A DNA stretch of 62,914 bases, the filler included, from Licmophora abbreviata (Eukaryota), in assembly GCA_900291995.1 (NCBI GenBank). It is 16 parts of 16 records of this genome, joined end to end, with 100 filler letters (N's around TTAATTAATTAA, not from the genome) between each part and the next. Parts side by side here need not be neighbours in the genome. Positions count along the whole stretch, not along the records: positions 11,296 to 16,575 come from OLMU01005074.1; 15 more parts are not named here. The stretch is one strand, 5' to 3'. A model generated the notes under the pieces. That model saw nothing but the letters and a program-made list of their open reading frames with translations, ran no database searches and was not told the DNA's origin. The translations under genes and the position numbers were made by a program. This document shows positions 1 through 17,128 of the stretch, piece after piece (position 1 is the first letter of the stretch; each line of letters starts with the position of its first letter).

Positions 1-621
<621 letters not shown>

Positions 622-9389: not shown

Positions 9390-11817
9390 GGCACGCTGAC
9401 CCTGTCGGGCACCAACAGCTTCAGCGGCGGGCTGGCCATCAACGCGGGTGTCGTCAGTGTGGCCAACATCCAAGGCGTGAACACTGCACTGGGGGCCAAT
9501 ACGGGGCGGGTGACCGTGGCGTCGGGCGCGGCGCTGGAACTGACCGGAAGTGGCACCAACGACAATCCGTTCACGATCTCGGGGACCGGCACCGGATCTG
9601 GCGCCATTGTCATGTCGGGGGGCAACAGCAGCCTGAACGGGGCGATCACCCTGGCGGACGATGCGATGATCGGCGTCTAAACCAGCCTCCTGAACATCGG
9701 CGGAACGATCACGCTTTCGGGCCATGACCTGACCTTTGCCGGAGGACAGACGAAGTTCGTGTCGGCGGCCATCGGGGGCGACACGGGCAGCGTCATTAAC
9801 ACGGCGGGCGATCTCCTCCTTGACGGGATCAACACCTACACCGGCAAGACCGTCGTCAATGGAGGGCGTATCATTCTGCGCAACGGCAGCGCGATCCACA
9901 AAGATGGCGTGGTCGAGGTCAACATGGGCACTTTGATCATCGACACCTCGGAGACGATAGGCTCGCTGTCGGGCGCGGGAAATCTGGCCTTCAGTCCCTC
10001 GCGCACCCTGACCACGGGGGGCAACAACGCCTCGACCACATTCTCCGGCAATGCCAGCGGTCCTGACGGTGCGTTGATCAAGCAGGGCACCGGCACCTTC
10101 ACCATGACCGGGACCAACACCTATACCGGCACGACCACGATCAGCGCGGGGACGCTGCAGATCGGCAATGGCGGGACAACCGGCACGCTTGGGACCGGCA
10201 GCGTGGTCAACAATGGCACCCTTACGTTCAATCGCTCCGACTCCGTCATCGTGGGGCAAGTGATTTCGGGCAGCGGCGGCGTGGTCAAGCAGGGCACCGG
10301 CACGCTGACCCTGACCGGGACCAACACCTATTCCGGCACGACCACGATCAGCGCAGGAACGCTGAGGATCGGTAATGGCGGGACAACCAGCACGCTTGGG
10401 CGCGGCAACGTGGTCAACAATGGCACCCTCAGGCTCAGCCGCTCGGACCCGTTCACAGTAACCAACTCAATCTCGGGGAGTGGCGGTATTATTGTTGGGA
10501 CGAGTCGCGCTGATCTCAGCGGCACCAACACCTACGAAGGTGATACCGTCATCAATGGATGGCTCATTGTGTCCGGGGGCAGCGCGATCGGAGACCAGAG
10601 TACTGTCCGGCTGAGCGGTAACGCACGTATGACTGTGCGTGACAGTGAGACGATTGGGGCCCTTGCCGGAAGTGGCGGATCTGTGTCCGTGCTAAACACG
10701 AAAACCCTGACGGTTGGTGCGAACAATACGTCGACCACCTATTCTGGAAGAATCTCAGGCGGTGGTGGGGCATTGACGAAGATCGGCACCGGCACGCTGA
10801 CGCTGACCGGAGAGTACGAGCACACAGGCACGACCACAATCAGCGCGGGCACTCTGGAGATTGGCAATGGCGGGACAACCGGCACGTTCCGGGACAGCAA
10901 CTTTGTCAACAATGCCACCCTTACGTTCAATCGCTCCGACTCTGTCACCGTAGGGCAAGTGATTTCGGGCAGCGGCAGCGTGGTCAAGCAAGGCACCGGC
11001 ACGCTGACCCTGACCGGGACCAACACCTATTCCGGCACGACCACGATCAGCGCAGGAACGCTGAGGATCGGTAATGGCGGCACGCTCGGGACCGGCAACG
11101 TGATCAACAATGGCACCCTTACGGTCAGTCGCTCCGGCTCCGTCACCTTGGCGCAAGTGATTTCGGGCAGCGGCAGCGTGGTCAAGCAGGGCACCNNNNN
11201 NNNNNNNNNNNNNNNNNNNNNNNNNNNNNNNNNNNNNNNTTAATTAATTAANNNNNNNNNNNNNNNNNNNNNNNNNNNNNNNNNNNNNNNNNNNNGTCGG
11301 GCGGGGCGATGACGCCTGACACCGTGGTGACCGTGTTGGGCGACTACACCGCCGCCTCGGACCTGATGCTCGACGTCATACTGGGGGGTGACACCTCGGC
11401 CAGCGACCGGTTGGTGATCACCGGCGCCACCAGCGGCGTGACCAATGTGTATGTGATGAACCGCGGCGGCACCGGCGCGCAGACCACCAACGGCATCCTC
11501 GTGGTGGACGTCGAAGGCGCCTCGGGCTGGGCGCGGAGCGCAGCTGGGCGAACGACAGATCCGGCACCGTCCGCCTTTATGGCATCGCCAACCTGATCTG
11601 GGATGTCAGCGGCGACACCCGGCTGCAGATCGGCCGCACGACGCTAATCGTGACCACGCCCGATCTTCTAACCGAAATCGGGCTTGGCGGGTCTTATGAC
11701 TGGCAGGTCAACGGGTGGCAGAACTCGATCTACGGCGAGGTGAACGCGTCCCGCGCCCTGTCGGGCGGCGACCTGAGCGCGCTGACAGGCACCGTCGGGC
11801 TGCGGGTGCAATGGTGA
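9390..11817 (+). pseudogene. Autotransporter adhesin with autotransporter-associated beta-strand repeats, disrupted
   Basis: Repeated LxKxGTGTLTLTGTNTYSGTTTISAGTLxIG units and an in-frame TAA at 9678-9680. After the gap there is an autochaperone-like segment (LGGDTSASDRLVITG). The frame then changes near 11520 directly into the last barrel strands, ending GTVGLRVQW*. Confidence 0.85.
10078..11195 (+). repeat. Near-identical intragenic repeat modules (about 200 bp) in the passenger domain
   Basis: For example, gtcaagca(g/a)ggcaccggcacgctgaccctgaccgggaccaacacctattccggcacg...ggtaatggcgg recurs at about 10284-10381 and 10983-11080. Confidence 0.85.
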
Positions 11818-11925
11818 TCCTGACCTACCACTGAACTTTCATCCTGATCTGATCCCCGCAAATTGGACCGTTTAACGCTGGAGTTTTCCGCTACGATTTT
11901 CCGTCTGGGAGAGGAGCGGAATCAC

Positions 11926-12192
11926 ATGAAGGCATCGAAGTTTTCGGACGCGCAGAAGGCGTTCGTCATCAAGCAGGGCGAAGAAGGCACACCGGTTGCC
12001 GAGATCTGCCGGAAGGCTGGGATCAGCCAGGCCACCTACTTCAACTGGAAGAAGAAATATGCGGGCCTGTTGCCAACGGAGATGAAGCGGCTGAAGCAGC
12101 TCGAGGACGAGAACGGCCGACTGAAGAAGATCGTAGCCGACCTTACCTTGGACCGCGAGATGTTGCAGGACGTCATCCGGCGAAAGTTCTGA
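11926..12192 (+). CDS. IS3 transposase OrfA
   Basis: MKASKFSDAQKAF...EICRKAGISQATYFNWKKKY...LKQLEDENGRLKKIVADL (HTH plus leucine zipper). Confidence 0.92.
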   Translation: MKASKFSDAQKAFVIKQGEEGTPVAEICRKAGISQATYFNWKKKYAGLLPTEMKRLKQLEDENGRLKKIVADLTLDREMLQDVIRRKF

Positions 12193-13105
12193 GGCCCCAC
12201 TCTCGCGCATGCAAGCATGCGCTGCCGTGCCGTGGGATCGGATGCGCGAACTGGTTCGCGGGATGTGCAGCGATTGGGCGGTCTCGATCCGAGCGGCGTG
12301 TGGGGCCATCGGATTTGATCGTTCGACGTTTCACTACAAATCCCGCCGCGTCGATCAGGCTGCCGTGGAAAGGCGGATCAAGGAGATCTGCGAGACACGT
12401 GTGCGCTACGGCTATCGCCGTGTTCATGTGCTCCTGGACCGCGAGGGCTGGGGCATCAACATCAAGAAAGTCTATCGTATTTACAGGGAGTTGGGCATGC
12501 AGCTGAGGAACAAGACGCCGAAACGGCGGGTGAAGGCCAAGCTGCGCGATGACCGTGCCGAAGCCGTCGGCCCCAACGATGTCTGGGCGATGCGTTGCCG
12601 ATAGGCGATTGCAAAGCAATCTGCCGGAAGGGATTTTGTCCATGACCAGATGGCGACGGGCAAGAAGCTTCGGGTTCTGACCGTCGTGGACACGTTCTCA
12701 CGATACGTGCCTGTGCTCGACGCGCGGTTCAGCTATCGGGGCGAAGATGTGGTCACGACGCTGGATCGAACCTGCCGAATGATCGGCCATCCCAAGACCA
12801 TCCGTGTCGATCAGGGCAGCGAGTTCATCTCCCGGGATATGGACCTCTGGGCCTATCAGCGCGGCGTCACACTCGACTTCTCGCGTCCTGGCAAACCGAC
12901 GGACAACGCCTTCATCGAGGCGTTCAATGGCCGCTTCCGTGCCGAGTGCTTGAACGCCCATTGGTTCCTGACGCTTGCAGATGCGGCAGAAAAGTTGGAG
13001 ACTTGGCGTAGATACTACAACGAGGAACGGCCACACAGCGCGATCGGCAACAAGGCCCCGATCACGCTGACAAAATCGGGGGGCATCACCAGCCTGTCAC
13101 CCTGA
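12183..13105 (+). pseudogene. IS3 transposase OrfB (DDE), interrupted by two palindromic insertions
   Basis: [45 protein letters not shown] and YNEERPHS motifs. In-frame TAG at 12602-12604 inside an insertion. Confidence 0.88.
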
Positions 13106-13158
13106 TCGAAGCAGGAAAACTCTCGCCAACGGCGGTAGAAGGTTCGGGGATCAGATCA

Positions 13159-13307
13159 AGACTGTTTAGATTCGCACGGAACGCGGCAGATAACTTAGGA
13201 TCCCCTGTCAAAAGTTCCTTTAATGCCTCGGGATCATAGGAATCAGTGGCAAGATAGCAGAGAAGAAAATCGAGAAATTCGGCATCCGTGAGGTAAACGC
13301 TATTCAT
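13159..13307 (-). pseudogene. Third immunity-like paralog, truncated by the IS3 element
   Basis: FLDFLLCYLATDSYDPEALKELLTGDPKLSAAFRANLNSL aligns with the N-terminal half of the 13662-13940 protein and runs into the IS right end at 13158. Confidence 0.6.
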
Positions 13308-13331
13308 CGGGAAATCCGCCGACGCAGCGTC

Positions 13332-13610
13332 TTAGTTCCATTCCCGATAAGCGCCGTTTGTGAATAGAAATTGATATAGCGCATCCAGGAACTCATACAA
13401 ATCATCATCATTCTCATGGGAAAAGTTCATTTCGTTCTCCTAATCTTCAGCCGAGAACGGCCGTTCATCCAAAATCTGCTGAAACTTCTCCTGTATGAAT
13501 TCTCGCTGGCTTGGATTTCCGACGAGATACGAGTTCAATCGGTCCAAGTCATAAAGCGCGGAGGAACAGTAGAAGTACATCGTCTCCAACCAAGGCTTAA
13601 ATCTGTCCAT
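13332..13610 (-). pseudogene. Second immunity-like paralog (92 codons) with an internal TAG
   Basis: Manual translation: MDRFKPWLETMYFYCSSALYDLDRL...QEKFQQILDERPFSAED*ENEMNFSHENDDDLYEFLDALYQFLFTNGAYREWN. The TAG at 13440-13442 aligns with Trp of the upstream paralog. Confidence 0.75.
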
Positions 13611-13661
13611 TTTCAGCTTCCCTCGGGAACAAGTGATATCAAATCAGGCTTTCCGCCTGAG

Positions 13662-13940
13662 TTATTCAAATGTCGGATATGGCCCTTCATTAAAAAGATA
13701 GCGGTACACGCGCCGAAGATGGTCATAAAGCTCTTCGTCAGTGTCCAAGCTTACGGTCGTCAAGTCTTCCCAAGTTTCAAACGTATATGGCCGTTTATCC
13801 AAAACTTGTTTGAACTGCTCTCTCAAGCGTCTGTCGGGCTCAGGCTTACGCCCCAGGCTCTGTTTCCGTCTTTCAGGGTCAAAATGGTTGGCGTTCAAGT
13901 ACCAATATGCAAATCCCTCGAACTCTTCAAAACCTCTCAT
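13662..13940 (-). CDS. Putative cognate immunity protein of the MuF toxin
   Basis: 92 aa, lower GC than flanks, start overlaps the toxin stop (ATGA). Size and position are typical of polymorphic-toxin immunity genes. Confidence 0.75.
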   Translation of the reverse strand: MRGFEEFEGFAYWYLNANHFDPERRKQSLGRKPEPDRRLREQFKQVLDKRPYTFETWEDLTTVSLDTDEELYDHLRRVYRYLFNEGPYPTFE

Positions 13941-15634
13941 CTCAGCGCCTCCGGAAATAGCGTAACCAACGCAGGTTCAGTTGCCAGAAGTTCACCGTGT
14001 AAACCGCGCGGAAATTCATAAACAGCCACGATAGAGCCATTCTCAAAATCAAGATCCACATAGTCTTGCGGGTTTTTCGCGGACCCAACGCGGGCCACGC
14101 CTTCAACACGCTGCACAGAGTTCGATCCAAGAACATCATCAAGGGGCAGCCTCACAGAAAACCTGCCTTCCCCGTTTATCTCGATATTCCCAACCTGCTG
14201 CATTCGGTCGTCTCGTGACGGATCAGTCAACCATTCCAGGGCCAGATCACGTGCCTGATCATAGTCAGGGCTACGCCGCACGAAAGCTTCCGCTGCCACG
14301 TAGTCCTCCCGGTCAATGGTCCTCGATGCGTATCGAGTCGGTGTATGAACAACCTGGGATGCCTGAACAGGATCAGTGTGGATCAAAGGGTCTTCGTTCC
14401 GCATCACCCGGTCGATCAACATCTGACGGGTTACATCTCCATCATGTCGTTGAGGTCCGTGCCCTTGGTCAAAAAGGTCTGCGTACCGCTGATTAACAAT
14501 CTGCATGACCTCTCGGCGACGTTTGTCGATCATATCATCCAACCGACTGCGACCAGCACGCAGGGCGTTCAGGGCCGATGTCGGCCGCAGACGGGTCAGA
14601 TTGATCCCGAGCTTCGCCGCACCCGCCGTGAAGGCCGTCCCGCCAAGAAGTACCGACGCATCAAGGTAGGCCACGTCTTCGTAGGCGCGCAGCAAGGCTT
14701 CTTCACTGGTCAGGCCCAGGCGGTATTCCAAGTCAAGCAAGCGAAGTTCTGCGTGTTGCGCCTCGAAAAAGGCAACCGCTTCCTGAGCGATCTGCTCGGC
14801 CGTTTCACGATCCAGCTCTGCCAATCGCTCCAGCGCATCAAGAATATTCTGCCGCGCGGTCAGCCGTTCCTGTTCTTCTTCATCCGTGATGGCACCAAAC
14901 AGAAGCCGGTAACCGAGATAGGAAAAACGGAGCACATCGTAGATACTAGTGACCGTGCCGACCAATGCGTCCTCACCGGCGCGCGCGAGGCCTCTGCCTT
15001 GTGCATCCAATATTCGATCCGCAAGGTCCGGCGACACCGGACGGCCTGTCAGAATGATCTGGCCGTTGACGATGGCCGGTTCTGCGAAGCACCGGCAATT
15101 ATGCGCTTCACCCGGCAATCCATCCGGAAAGCTGTGACTCCACGGAAATACGCGATCATCCCGCTCGGCATGGCTTGACCTGACCTTAGAGTCGTCTGCC
15201 GACCGCCAGATGTAATGTGTGACGCCTGCTGCCCGTTGCCGCGTCTCATTCAATTCGTTCTCAAACCGACGCAACAGCCAGGCTTCAGTCGCGGCGATGT
15301 CCACTTCGATCAGATTTGCCATCTCGGCTATGTTACGGCCATCGCGATCATAGACGGCAATCGTCGCGATAAGACGGGCCTCAAATTCGTCATAGGAACG
15401 CTGCTTCAGAGGCCCGGAGTTGTAACCGTCAGTGTCGCCAAGACGTTCAGCCAGAAACGCAGAATTGTCCGCTTCGACTTCTTCCAGCAGCACCAGAAAT
15501 CTCTGGAAATGCGGTTCCAGATCGAAAGATACATCCTTCTGCTCAGGCGCACGGTTCAGCCGATGCAGACTGACCGTAAATTCTGATTTGCCGCCTGACC
15601 GAAGGAAGCGGACAAAAGGTGTATCGAACGCCAT
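13937..15634 (-). CDS. MuF (phage Mu gpF/SPP1 gp7 head morphogenesis) domain protein with a C-terminal putative nuclease toxin
   Basis: MuF signature YIWRSADDSKVRSSH...DRVFPW...PGEAHNCRC, hydrophobic central segments, and a C-terminal domain from GHGPQRHDG to LVTLFP reminiscent of RNase-type polymorphic toxin tips. Confidence 0.8.
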   Translation of the reverse strand: MAFDTPFVRFLRSGGKSEFTVSLHRLNRAPEQKDVSFDLEPHFQRFLVLLEEVEADNSAFLAERLGDTDGYNSGPLKQRSYDEFEARLIATIAVYDRDGRNIAEMANLIEVDIAATEAWLLRRFENELNETRQRAAGVTHYIWRSADDSKVRSSHAERDDRVFPWSHSFPDGLPGEAHNCRCFAEPAIVNGQIILTGRPVSPDLADRILDAQGRGLARAGEDALVGTVTSIYDVLRFSYLGYRLLFGAITDEEEQERLTARQNILDALERLAELDRETAEQIAQEAVAFFEAQHAELRLLDLEYRLGLTSEEALLRAYEDVAYLDASVLLGGTAFTAGAAKLGINLTRLRPTSALNALRAGRSRLDDMIDKRRREVMQIVNQRYADLFDQGHGPQRHDGDVTRQMLIDRVMRNEDPLIHTDPVQASQVVHTPTRYASRTIDREDYVAAEAFVRRSPDYDQARDLALEWLTDPSRDDRMQQVGNIEINGEGRFSVRLPLDDVLGSNSVQRVEGVARVGSAKNPQDYVDLDFENGSIVAVYEFPRGLHGELLATEPALVTLFPEALR

Positions 15635-15676
15635 GACAAGTCTTTGAATGTGATTTGCCGATTTTGCTCGTTATTG

Positions 15677-15692
15677 GTTAACCATTTGTGAA
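15677..15692 (-). promoter_or_regulatory. CtrA-like binding site upstream of the MuF-toxin gene
   Basis: The minus strand reads TTCA-CAAATGG-TTAAC, one mismatch from TTAA-N7-TTAAC. The plus strand contains the TTAACCAT half-site. It lies about 45 bp upstream of the ATG. Confidence 0.45.
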
Positions 15693-15732
15693 TTCTGCGA
15701 ACGGTCCCCCGGATCCACTTGGCATTGATCCT

Positions 15733-16389
15733 CTAAGGTTTCTGCCCCGCCAGAAACTCCGCCAGCACCGGGCTGGCAGCACCTTTCGCGGAGCTGAGCA
15801 GCTCCGAGCCTGCAAGCGAGGCCTTCGACAGGCGCACGAGGCCGCCGGTTTCCTCGATGCGGTAGCAGCGGCGTTTTTGCCGCCCCCGCCTGTAGTGGGT
15901 CGCGGTGACAATCTGGCAGGTGCTTCCATCGGTGAGCGTCACCGGTTTTGCGAGCCTGATCTTGTCGCCTTCGTCGTAATCCGGGATCGACGCCCAGTCC
16001 CGGCAGCGCTGGCGCCAGTCCTGGGCGTAGCTGTCCGGGTCTTTCAGGTCGGAGAGAAGCGCGATCAGCCCAAGGGGAGCGCAAGACTCGTTCGGGCCAG
16101 TGCTTTCCTCCATGTCCTTGTAGCCCCAGCACCCATCATCGTAGCGGGTGAGGAAGACGGCACCGAAGGTGATCGAGCCGTCCGCGTCCGTGACATAGGT
16201 CGCATCCTCGACAGGGGTGCCGTCGCAGTTGGTGACCCTTGCCGCCGCATACCAGGTGGAGCCGAGCTTGCAGGCCTTGACCAGCTCGGTTTTGCGCGTG
16301 TCGCCATGAGAGGTGCACAGCCGGGTGATTTCCGCTTTCTCATCCGCGTAGGTCTGGACGCGGCCGTCGGTGTAGAAGAGCCATCCCAT
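15733..16389 (-). CDS. Plasmid/ICE-associated conserved protein (DUF6927-like)
   Basis: MGWLF start with WYAA and WGYKDMEESTGP...AQDWRQRC motifs, typical of alphaproteobacterial plasmid accessory regions. Confidence 0.6.
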   Translation of the reverse strand: MGWLFYTDGRVQTYADEKAEITRLCTSHGDTRKTELVKACKLGSTWYAAARVTNCDGTPVEDATYVTDADGSITFGAVFLTRYDDGCWGYKDMEESTGPNESCAPLGLIALLSDLKDPDSYAQDWRQRCRDWASIPDYDEGDKIRLAKPVTLTDGSTCQIVTATHYRRGRQKRRCYRIEETGGLVRLSKASLAGSELLSSAKGAASPVLAEFLAGQKP

Positions 16390-17128
16390 CAAGCCGCCCT
16401 CCGGTCATCGAGCTCCATGAGCGCATCGAGCGGTACGCGATAGGGCTGCATGGCGTCGAAATCCTCGCAATTGCCACAGTTCTGAACGATCGCGAAGGTA
16501 TCGCAGGCATCCTTGAGAATGACCCGGAAGGTGCCGCCGAGGCCCGAGGGCACCCCATAGGTCCCGCCAATGAGANNNNNNNNNNNNNNNNNNNNNNNNN
16601 NNNNNNNNNNNNNNNNNNNTTAATTAATTAANNNNNNNNNNNNNNNNNNNNNNNNNNNNNNNNNNNNNNNNNNNNGTGCCGCCGAGGCCCCGAGGGGCAC
16701 CCCATAGGTCCCGCCAATGAGATAGTCCGAGGCCCGGCGCACGAAGACGTGGATGCTGTGGCCATCGGTGGCGAGCCGGATGGCCCCCGCCCCCGGTCGA
16801 TGAGCACCTGCACGTCATCCAGGATGTCGGTGTAGAACTGGCCGGTCAGATCGCGAAACGCCATGCGGCGCTGCGCCATCCAGTCGGTGTCCCGAAACGG
16901 GTTCATGCCATCGGCGAAGGCGAAGGAGGGATCGGCCTGTTCGGTGGTGACAATGCGGGTGGTCGTGCCATCGATGCCGTTGGAGCGCAGATGCACGCCA
17001 TTGCCGACGATGAGGATCAGGGCGGGCCTGTCCACCGGGCCGTTCCAGTTGGGCAGGAAGGTTTTGCAGGCGCGCGCATGGGCGATCTGCGCCGCGACGG
17101 CGGACGCAGAGAACTTGAGAATAGCCAT
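16389..17128 (-). CDS. Plasmid-associated hypothetical protein (DUF3085-like), spanning an artificial gap
   Basis: MAILKFSA...PALILIVGNGVHLRSNG...FAFADGMNP. The contig ends overlap (16531-16575 vs 16676-16722). The ORF finishes ...MELDDRRAA* overlapping the next ATG. Confidence 0.6.

Follow-up and report, generated by a model that had tools for sequence, protein, structure and literature searches.

MuF polymorphic toxins of temperate phages are reportedly the subject of a study by Zhang et al. from 2012. The locus analyzed here, at positions 13,159 to 15,692 of a stretch of 62,914 bases (hereafter the window) from the Licmophora abbreviata assembly GCA_900291995.1, is a cassette of a gene for a MuF-domain protein followed by small genes on the same strand. 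In the main text of Jamet et al. (2017, PMC5576092), a portal or terminase gene is reported close to 87% of the chromosomal muf genes, and toxin-bearing MuF proteins occur mainly in Firmicutes; the words "orphan", "outside" and "gene transfer agent" are absent from that main text. In the excerpted text of the 2024 paper on Bxa and Apk2 (PMC11699363), the characterized MuF toxins are located in head-morphogenesis regions and the biological role of MuF toxins is given as unknown, and in excerpts of Iyer et al. (2017, PMC5512222) MuF figures as a virion-associated hub domain. The closest described system for the C-terminal tip of the protein is CdiA-CT of Yersinia kristensenii, according to the excerpted text of Batot et al. 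(2017, PMC5435912) a potent RNase with an RNase A fold for which His175, Arg186, Thr276 and Tyr278 are needed; all homologs keep His175 and Thr276, and many have Phe for Tyr278. No description of a cassette such as the one reported here was found in the literature on gene transfer agents (GTAs) and MuF or head morphogenesis, supplements and subscription journals apart.

The locus is read as a live cassette of the MuF polymorphic-toxin family, independent of any phage of its own, whose product would be loaded into the heads of helper phages and injected from them; a probability of about 0.45 is assigned to this reading. It is carried by the identity of the domains, the pairing of toxin and immunity genes, the orphan contexts of the family and the selection acting on the three parts of the protein, all of which were shown here. 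The features of the cassette are the following:

15635..15741, minus strand: toxin-gene leader with the backbone junction (15742 is the last position homologous to the reference plasmid)
13937..15634, minus strand: intact toxin open reading frame (ORF), 565 amino acids
15065..15532, minus strand: MuF (phage minor head protein) module, residues ~35-190 (Pfam, PHROG, structural model and BFVD)
14480..15064, minus strand: helical linker, residues 191-385 (secondary structure of the model, hydropathy)
13940..14479, minus strand: putative C-terminal toxin domain, residues 386-565 (predicted fold, profile search)
13662..13940, minus strand: putative cognate immunity gene, 92 amino acids, its start overlapping the stop codon of the toxin gene (ATGA)
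13332..13610, minus strand: second immunity paralog, a pseudogene of 92 codons with an in-frame TAG at codon 57 (13440-13442)
13162..13307, minus strand: third immunity paralog, truncated, with ~49 native codons followed by an insertion sequence (IS) (alignment A4)

A 565-residue protein with a MuF signature had been predicted from the sequence alone, and it was recovered by searches with hidden Markov models: residues 130-183 matched Pfam family PF04233 (Phage_Mu_F; E=4.3e-8, 34.3 bits against a cut-off of 29.6), which was also matched by 46 of the 56 aligned homologs, and PHROG 324 "head morphogenesis" was matched at E=1.5e-21. The match to NCBIfam TIGR01641 (SPP1 gp7) had an E-value of 3.5e-8 and was below the cut-off of that family. 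In the structural model of residues 1-390 (predicted local distance difference test, pLDDT, 75.5), a disordered start is followed by three long helices (40-135); a small beta core occupies 138-189, and the remainder is helical. The beta core is conserved, with H155 and C180-R-C182. The predicted viral structures in BFVD closest to this model were labelled "minor capsid component" and "phage head morphogenesis domain" (best E=2.6e-4), so that Pfam, PHROG and BFVD agree on the MuF region. A fold search of residues 1-390 against solved structures returned only generic helical bundles, with Z of at most 9.0, which is below the meaningful level for helical proteins, and a PDB sequence search with the toxin protein gave 0 matches; in a PDB profile search 44 residues of the linker matched YnzC weakly (E=0.001), which was taken as uninformative. 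Relatives were encoded by 277 stretches of IMG/VR, from which 78 loci were kept: about 45 of them matched residues 10-186 (some up to 259) with 29-35% identity, and a single one, L039, matched over the full length. Judged by these matches, the N-terminal 190 residues are a complete phage-type MuF module with bona fide phage-borne MuF toxins as nearest kin. As to the linker, the hydrophobic mid-segments noted in the original prediction were reduced to one helix rich in Gly and Ala (326-344) and of mild hydrophobicity, where the Kyte-Doolittle mean over 19 residues peaks at 1.27; a transmembrane anchor in this segment was considered and rejected, as this maximum is too low.

The tip of the protein (residues 365-565) was modelled with a pLDDT of 86.3 and a predicted template modelling score of 0.81. 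When the model was compared with 48,161 solved chains using VIA-align, the top match was 5e3e_B, the CdiA-CT toxin of Y. kristensenii (Z 10.0, root-mean-square deviation 2.6, 112 of 114 residues aligned), the next one reaching Z 4.8; Foldseek likewise gave 5e3e_B as its top match (E=0.012). The tip is thus predicted to adopt an RNase A-like fold and would probably act as an RNase. The GHxxxxH...LVTLFP motifs, from which a nuclease-like tip had been proposed, were indeed present (GHGPQRH and LVTLFP) and conserved in homologs, yet the fold match points to an RNase A-like enzyme and not to a metal-dependent one of the HNH type, and a DNase of the HNH/GHH type was accordingly rejected as an explanation of the GHxxxxH motif. 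In the 17 aligned homologs H392, R396, H397, R409 and P561 were invariant, position 560 was F or Y in 16, and T558 was kept in at least 90%, giving the family motif QGHGPQRHEG...VEGV...GEPxL[VI]T[LM][FY]P. The strings QRH397-DGDVT, LID-R409-V and LV-T558-L-F560-P of the window protein parallel DRH175-VGKT, LLN-R186-V and II-T276-G-Y278-P of CdiA-CT, the contexts of the latter being derived from primers given in the excerpted text of PMC5435912. By their aligned ranges (model 25..199 against chain 168..281, rather than a residue-by-residue superposition), H397, R409, T558 and F560 fall at His175, Arg186, Thr276 and Tyr278, and these four residues are the candidate active site in the model. In P0001, a Roseovarius sp. 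protein 99% identical to that of the window, K is found instead of T558, which may inactivate the toxin of that strain.

In order to follow the tip beyond the family, a tip-only profile (A6, 14 sequences) was run against 1.84 billion representative proteins, and 369 were found at E<=0.001 (263 at E<=1e-10). Among the 150 matches listed, proteins of 97-1175 amino acids, the tip was situated at the C-terminus or a few residues from it in nearly all, P0192 being the exception. The Pfam scan of carriers comprised the 86 listed matches of at least 300 amino acids, with shorter ones and the own members P0073, P0098 and P0101 left out; a recognized N-terminal domain was present in 18 of the 86, namely RHS repeats or core (7), PG_binding_1 (2) and, once each, Hcp, PAAR with prePAAR, Tox-PAAR-like, DUF4123, the core of an extracellular contractile injection system (eCIS), PT-TG, PT-HINT, MuF and an Ntox46 N-terminal stretch. 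Over the tip itself no Pfam match was obtained in any of them. On the chromid of Tritonibacter mobilis (L122), a 595-residue protein encoded after a DUF4123 gene carries the tip (33% identity, E=1e-20), and in Pseudoalteromonas piscicida (L121) a 259-residue tip protein belongs to an array after a VgrG-like gene, together with a WHH/colicin-DNase toxin, a SUKH immunity gene and Imm49.

The 92-codon gene (imm92) was predicted to be translationally coupled to the toxin gene, and the ATGA overlap at the toxin stop codon bears this out. Moreover, an imm92 homolog was found directly downstream of the toxin gene in all 26 of the 29 family loci for which downstream DNA was available (24 by tblastn, and two, L011 and L017, by inspection of ORFs and alignment). 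Several relatives have two or three tandem copies, and spare immunity genes are present in the window, L006, L008, L009 and L013. With 32 clusters, the imm92 family is small, and Pfam has no model for it. In a comparison of 15 loci (105 pairs), the identity of the immunity proteins was correlated with that of the tips (r=0.89), also given the N-terminal 385 residues (partial r=0.73, not reached in any of 5000 permutations), and the partial correlation of immunity with N-terminus identity was 0.16. Individual pairs ranged from window and L001, with identities of 84% in the N-terminus, 49% in the tip and 33% in the immunity protein, to L008 and L013, with 62%, 82% and 81%, respectively. Variable C-termini with matched immunity genes, which the original prediction proposed to look for, are a property of the family. 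In both type VI secretion contexts named above, the ORF after the tip is likewise an imm92 homolog (hhalign probability 97.3%, E=2.2e-11, and 96.6%, E=6e-10). The assignment as toxin and immunity protein is strongly supported at the sequence level, since the tip is borne by Rhs, PAAR, Hcp and eCIS proteins, the small gene travels along with it and the identities of both covary. The predicted complex of tip and 92-residue protein scored 0.78, and a control with chain 1 replaced scored 0.77, so that the prediction speaks on neither side of the binding question. The immunity protein would presumably neutralize the toxin by binding to it.

The array of three immunity genes in the window stood as regards the three paralogous ORFs, not as regards their function: a single gene is live and two are dead. 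The paralog ORFs are 29% (second) and 28% (third) identical to the 92-residue immunity protein. The second is open over 13440..13610, and read-through past its TAG, a codon that corresponds to W in the ortholog of L009, spells the conserved C-terminal motifs of the family; its first 56 residues share 52.6% identity with the first immunity gene of L009. The third was cut by an IS3 element, its ORF (13086..13307) running into the right inverted repeat of the latter (13114-13161). In one sequencing run a joint of 13612 to 14508 was observed with 90% likeness, which may stem from a relative whose tip differs.

A search of 5.8 billion proteins gave 110 matches, ~104 of them in the family, conserved over the whole length of the alignment and almost all from Rhodobacterales where the organism was named (Roseovarius, at 99%, Actibacterium, Roseobacter, Tateyamaria, Rhodobacter and Paracoccus). 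In species-representative genomes 38 loci were found, 29 of which match beyond the MuF core. Among 151 evenly sampled Rhodobacteraceae genomes, the protein was full-length in two, partial in one and represented only by its N-terminal or MuF part in 11, and the family is thus a sporadic accessory gene. None of 72,556 plasmid records of PLSDB and none of 50,697 phage records held at least 80% of the protein.

The neighborhoods of relatives were surveyed in 30 family loci with flanks, using longest-ORF calling, as calling based on GC content at third codon positions missed MuF genes. The 79 ORFs within 10-kb flanks of seven loci included housekeeping genes (UvrD, YchF, TrpA, dehydroquinase, radical SAM, aldehyde dehydrogenase) as well as small islands with integrase fragments, TIR, ABC-3C and IS110, and no portal, terminase or capsid family was detected among them with Pfam. 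A tblastn search with all ORFs of at least 100 amino acids from nine phage loci detected structural genes in one of the 30 family loci (tail genes, at the left end of L039). The other matches beyond the MuF gene were to a further MuF gene in L008, to a short stretch of L019 and, over 43 residues, in L015, and a match at the end of L013 was an overlap with the query locus L117 itself. Three lambda-type portals used as queries gave nothing at E up to 1 in the 30 loci, and in five genomes each portal of four families was either on a contig other than that of the gene or 25 kb or more away from it. The absence of portal genes around homologs, for which the original prediction proposed a survey, was confirmed in these loci, structural genes being found at L039 only.

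Orphan copies also occur beside tRNA genes. A tRNA-Ser gene, with an anticodon (tga, cga or gct) that varies by genome, was located ~95-105 nt upstream of the start codon in 8 of the 21 loci scanned. In L019 a 2,278-bp unit without an integrase lies between 142-nt direct repeats containing tRNA-Ser (1-142 and 2279-2420), and in Rhodobacter capsulatus SP18 exact 18-bp repeats of a tRNA-Gln end (L013:9370-9387 and 16067-16084) bound a 6.7-kb island with the toxin gene, two immunity genes and an integrase. L039 is a prophage end, with an 820-residue tape measure protein, DUF2460, a GTA_TIM-type tail protein, a DUF2793 fibre and an RTX/M23 protein. In this locus a 172-nt stretch comprising tRNA remnant, leader and the start of the gene is found a second time behind the immunity gene, where the contig ends (9854-10025 and 11893-12064), which suggests tandem cassettes. 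L039 was rejected as proof of a phage-borne member, as a 3' remnant of tRNA-Ser separates the tail genes from the cassette. The orphan state is the rule, with two cases located beside prophages that use the same tRNA sites.

The leader of the window gene contains GGTTAACC ~50 nt before the toxin ATG. A TTAA(C/T) core, often GTTAAC, was common to the leaders of relatives at ~45-60 nt before the start codon (window, L001, L002, L004, L008-L010, L012, L013, L016, L021-L023, L039 and L119; in a non-statistical comparison). TTAA-N7-TTGA was present in the leaders of L001, L004, L009 and L119, and TTAA-N7-TTGT in that of L002, a motif resembling a CtrA-type box. A sigma-70 promoter scan of 13000-16575 gave 0 sites, against 1.6 expected.

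Some relatives showed further arrangements. In the metagenome-assembled genome of L008, a second, different MuF gene (L008:12416-13690, 424 amino acids, PF04233 E=1.1e-9) comes after the two immunity genes and is followed by two ORFs of 176 and 112 amino acids, forming a tandem array of MuF cassettes; its C-terminal part resembles an endolysin/chitinase-like protein of an R. capsulatus prophage (37.6% over 133 amino acids). The prophage beside the MuF island of SP18 (L117, G001:C1:3136000-3154000; L013:17320-20934) extends from terminase to endolysin, the endolysin being followed by a 1204-residue protein with tail-like and Ig-like matches, and SP18 has four GTA_TIM genes beyond that of its GTA cluster. 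In L119 (491-1020 and 1836-3055), a metagenome relative with 80% identity, the gene is split into ORFs of 384 and 165 amino acids. On one side of it are ORFs that, from reading of translations, look CcdA/CcdB-like and zeta-toxin-like, and on the other a transaldolase-like gene.

In the window, the cassette is flanked by the following two features:

11842..13161, plus strand: IS3-family insertion sequence bounding the cassette, with 48-nt inverted repeats (71% complementary) and orfB split into two ORFs
15733..16392, minus strand: DUF6927 gene of a conjugative-plasmid backbone, outside the cassette (Pfam PF21992, E=1.9e-30)

The IS3 element has the Pfam domains HTH_Tnp_1, HTH_21, rve and rve_3. 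DUF6927 matched 294 plasmid records, 187 of them typed as conjugative, with up to 94.5% identity (plasmids of Sulfitobacter, Roseovarius and Phaeobacter). ParB and DUF3768 genes sit on the contig next to that of the cassette, and the order on a Roseovarius pelagicus plasmid is ArdC-like zincin, DUF3768, ParB, regulator, DUF6927, RelB/RelE and strawberry notch. DNA matches to this plasmid covered 16676-19780 (89.5%) and 15742-16575 (91.2%) and overlap by 45 nt in the reference, so that the two window contigs abut and the plasmid neighbors are real. The homology stops at 15742, where RelBE follows in R. pelagicus and the MuF cassette and then IS3 follow in the window. By this synteny, the cassette is cargo on a roseobacter conjugative plasmid; the plasmid genes and IS originally named as neighbors are thus corroborated, as is a position outside any prophage, with plasmid backbone on one side and IS3 on the other. 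In two other runs, contigs matching the DUF6927 backbone depart from the window sequence at 15733-15744, which weakly fits backbone variants without the cassette.

Selection was estimated according to Nei-Gojobori for 16 pairs and three regions, giving 48 values, of which seven saturated ones and three from a near-identical pair were left out. In the 38 informative estimates dN/dS (ratio of nonsynonymous to synonymous substitution rates) ranged from 0.059 to 0.393 over all three parts of the protein, with 0.06-0.39 in the N-terminal MuF region and 0.07-0.18 in the linker, the most constrained part. Copies were intact in 17 of the 21 loci examined. Most copies are therefore kept by selection, the MuF module included; this speaks against a relic, the case raised as a refuting condition in the original prediction, and also against a toxin-antitoxin role confined to the cell.

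Possible helpers were sought among phage relatives and in the portals of carrier genomes. Six IMG/VR loci were annotated (L039, L040, L041, L052, L065 and L080), L040 having no family matches. In L041, L052, L065 and L080 the MuF gene lies amid a lambda-family portal (PF05136), an S49 protease, a gpD decoration protein and a capsid, together with a tail tube, a long tape measure protein and DUF2460 and BR0599 tail-tip proteins like those of the R. capsulatus GTA (RcGTA); the C-terminus of the MuF protein was RNAse_A_bac (PF18431) in L052 and EndoU in L080, and received no assignment in L041 and L065. The HK97-type portal PF04860, as in RcGTA, was detected in all 13 carrier genomes checked, the lambda-type PF05136 in eight (one a fragment), the Mu-type PF06074 above its cut-off in three, and the SPP1-type PF05133 in none of five tested. 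In the five genomes tested, a GTA_TIM gene was located ~9.3-9.6 kb from the PF04860 portal, as in RcGTA clusters. Elsewhere in R. capsulatus SP18 there are two Mu-type portals, each next to a MuF gene, i.e. in the canonical arrangement. The toxin gene was intact in all eight genomes with a lambda-type portal and in three of five without, numbers too small for use.

Under the reading proposed here, the MuF module, which in phages puts the protein inside the capsid at the portal, would take the toxin into heads assembled in the cell, the likeliest helpers being those siphophages of Rhodobacterales that have lambda-type portals and MuF toxins of their own with this N-terminal module. The particles would then inject the toxin into neighbor cells, which would die unless they have a matching immunity gene, while the overlapping 92-codon gene would encode the immunity protein that shields the producer. 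The two dead paralogs would be remnants of a spare immunity array against other toxin variants, and spare immunity genes make sense only if toxin variants come from other cells. Loading in trans into foreign capsids is plausible, packaging in trans and delivery being inferred. In a tentative and rather doubtful form of this idea, the toxin is a capsid hitchhiker: a virionless cassette of ~2 kb, on plasmids or tRNA-linked mini-islands, would keep MuF as a "capsid address" for loading in trans into the heads of siphophages or, less likely, of GTAs.

Several points weigh against loading into helper heads. No experiment or proteome places the protein in any particle, and phage relatives keep the MuF gene in the structural module, so that here a timing with the late genes of the helper would be needed. 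The orphan state is not absolute: the SP18 copy is only ~25 kb from a prophage portal, and the L039 cassette comes after prophage tail genes and the tRNA-Ser 3' remnant, all on one strand. Lambda- and Mu-type portals were both absent from five of the 13 carrier genomes, and the gene is intact in three of these (G002, G162 and G163, the last two metagenome bins); a resident helper of these two types is therefore not always present. Copies were broken in L003, L004, L024 and L028 and damaged in L005 (TGA stop), L007 (remnant) and L119 (split). Regarding the tip, none of 56 family members matched PF18431 (RNAse_A_bac) at E up to 10, and BLASTP against the phage MuF protein that matches PF18431 gave nothing. 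Finally, the location of the cassette in the slot of RelBE also fits a plain addiction role.

This last role, in which the pair would act inside the cell only and the MuF part would be left from a phage ancestor, is considered unlikely. Besides the RelBE slot of the R. pelagicus plasmid, it would account for the CcdAB-like and zeta-like ORFs read beside L119, for relatives among integrase fragments, TIR and ABC-3C genes, and for the lack of a secretion signal and of an own virion. However, it would make the N-terminal 385 residues dispensable, yet these are under purifying selection (dN/dS 0.06-0.39) and intact in 17 of 21 copies: the protein is not a toxic domain alone, as in a type II toxin-antitoxin system. 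Extra immunity paralogs and the swapping of tip and immunity gene as a unit are hallmarks of toxins exchanged between cells, and the same tip is borne by Rhs, PAAR and Hcp carriers. The spare immunity genes, with the toxin-immunity copies borne by type VI secretion systems, point to competition between bacteria and away from an anti-phage decoy, in which MuF would bind the portal or prohead of an infecting phage and either release the RNase, with abortive effect, or poison the progeny. Sabotage of phage progeny had also been raised in the original prediction, and selection on a MuF module that has no cognate virion, as well as the location of L003 and L005 next to TIR, ABC-3C and integrase genes, would agree with it. 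On the other side, 5027 PADLOC models gave no match at E<=0.1 for five proteins, including the toxin and three small ORFs, as would also be the case for a system new to that library, and no sign of a sensor-release mechanism was seen. The decoy is rated somewhat less probable than addiction.

A role as cargo of GTAs, in which the toxin would be loaded into RcGTA-type heads and delivered to recipients, had been part of the original prediction; a specific link to GTAs has no support. It could be favored by the HK97-type portal present in 13 of 13 carriers, with GTA_TIM at its typical distance in five of five, by Actibacterium lipolyticum (G002), which has no MuF gene besides the orphan and, among four families, no portal besides that of the GTA, and by the ~2.2 kb of the cassette, which could be accommodated in a head with a capacity below 4,500 bp (4.5 kb) according to the excerpted text of Bardy et al. 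(2020, PMC7296036). In contrast with the presence of GTAs in all carriers, the family is rare (full-length in 2 of 151 sampled genomes and partial in one), i.e. no regular GTA accessory, and the nearest phage MuF modules go with lambda-family portals (PF05136), while the RcGTA portal belongs to another family (PF04860). The excerpted text of PMC7296036 gives fourteen structural proteins for RcGTA, the terms "minor" and "ejection protein" were not found in that paper, and titles and abstracts of the literature on gene transfer agents and MuF mention neither MuF toxins nor such GTA cargo. This role is therefore improbable. Far less probable again is an effector of conjugation, moved as a protein through the type IV secretion system of the plasmid along with leading-region genes: the cassette abuts DUF3768, ParB, regulator and DUF6927 genes, near an ArdC-like gene in the reference plasmid, and the excerpts of Iyer et al. 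(2017, PMC5512222) name MuF as a hub domain in the polyvalent proteins that phages and conjugative elements encode, but only the window copy is on such a backbone, no PLSDB plasmid has a full-length member, DUF6927 is syntenic in none of 38 loci and relatives are found in chromosomes without type IV secretion genes nearby.

Regarding the origin of the DNA, the window is no single molecule: it consists of 16 contigs joined by N44-TTAATTAATTAA-N44 spacers. The first five, to 19956, are bacterial (GC content 0.57-0.64) and include the contig of the cassette (11296-16575, 5,280 bp, GC content 0.573), which is so short that the absence of a portal on it says little by itself. From 20057 on, the contigs have a GC content of ~0.50 and eukaryotic protein genes, with products such as Kelch, bromodomain and KAT11 acetyltransferase, SLC4-type bicarbonate transporter, histone deacetylase, Myb, PPR and aquaporin. 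By this partition, the record is a eukaryote assembly with a co-assembled roseobacter. The stretch 13086-15732 was complete in five public runs, each a possible source, with five different organism labels and studies, a spread expected for a bacterium accompanying cultured eukaryotes; no RNA run contained the locus, and a 7.6-kb contig of one run, possibly the source run, spans it whole. Immediately to the left of IS3, autotransporter fragments with PATR repeats, an AC_1 autochaperone and a beta-barrel end were observed at 9390-11195 and 11309-11817, spread over two contigs and two frames.

Since the characterized MuF toxins are all inside their own prophage, packaging and toxicity are inseparable from the phage in those systems. 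A family under selection that has lost the phage and kept MuF would be a clean test of whether MuF alone loads a protein into foreign capsids. If it does, particles of marine roseobacter phages or GTAs could carry toxins that are encoded elsewhere, here on a conjugative plasmid, and if the hitchhiking idea is true, the particles of another element would become toxin-delivery devices that spare only cells with the matching immunity. In addition, two families without a Pfam model were defined: the RNase A-like tip, with Rhs, PAAR, Hcp, eCIS and MuF carriers in 369 representative clusters, and its immunity protein.

Compared with known systems, the cassette resembles phage MuF toxins in its N-terminal MuF, its variable C-terminal toxin and its small downstream immunity gene or genes, spares included. 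It differs from them in that the cassette and nearly all its relatives are without head genes nearby and in that tip and immunity protein lack a Pfam model, and unlike the mainly Firmicutes toxin-bearing MuF proteins of Jamet et al., the family is alphaproteobacterial. With CdiA-CT of Y. kristensenii 33638 (PDB 5E3E) the tip shares the predicted fold, a His near the start, an Arg 12 residues on and a T-x-[FY]-P end, but it is only 17% identical, has ~60 extra residues as insertions and possesses a second invariant His (H392). As for cis-mobilizable elements and phage-dependent hitchhikers, a likeness exists in the unit of L019 bracketed by tRNA repeats and in the SP18 island; unlike in those hitchhikers, packaging signals and genes for replication or capsid remodelling were not seen, and it is a protein, not DNA, that would hitchhike. 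The type VI secretion effectors of T. mobilis and P. piscicida share with the cassette a homologous toxin domain followed by an imm92 homolog, whereas their carrier or trafficking part is a different one, with no MuF domain.

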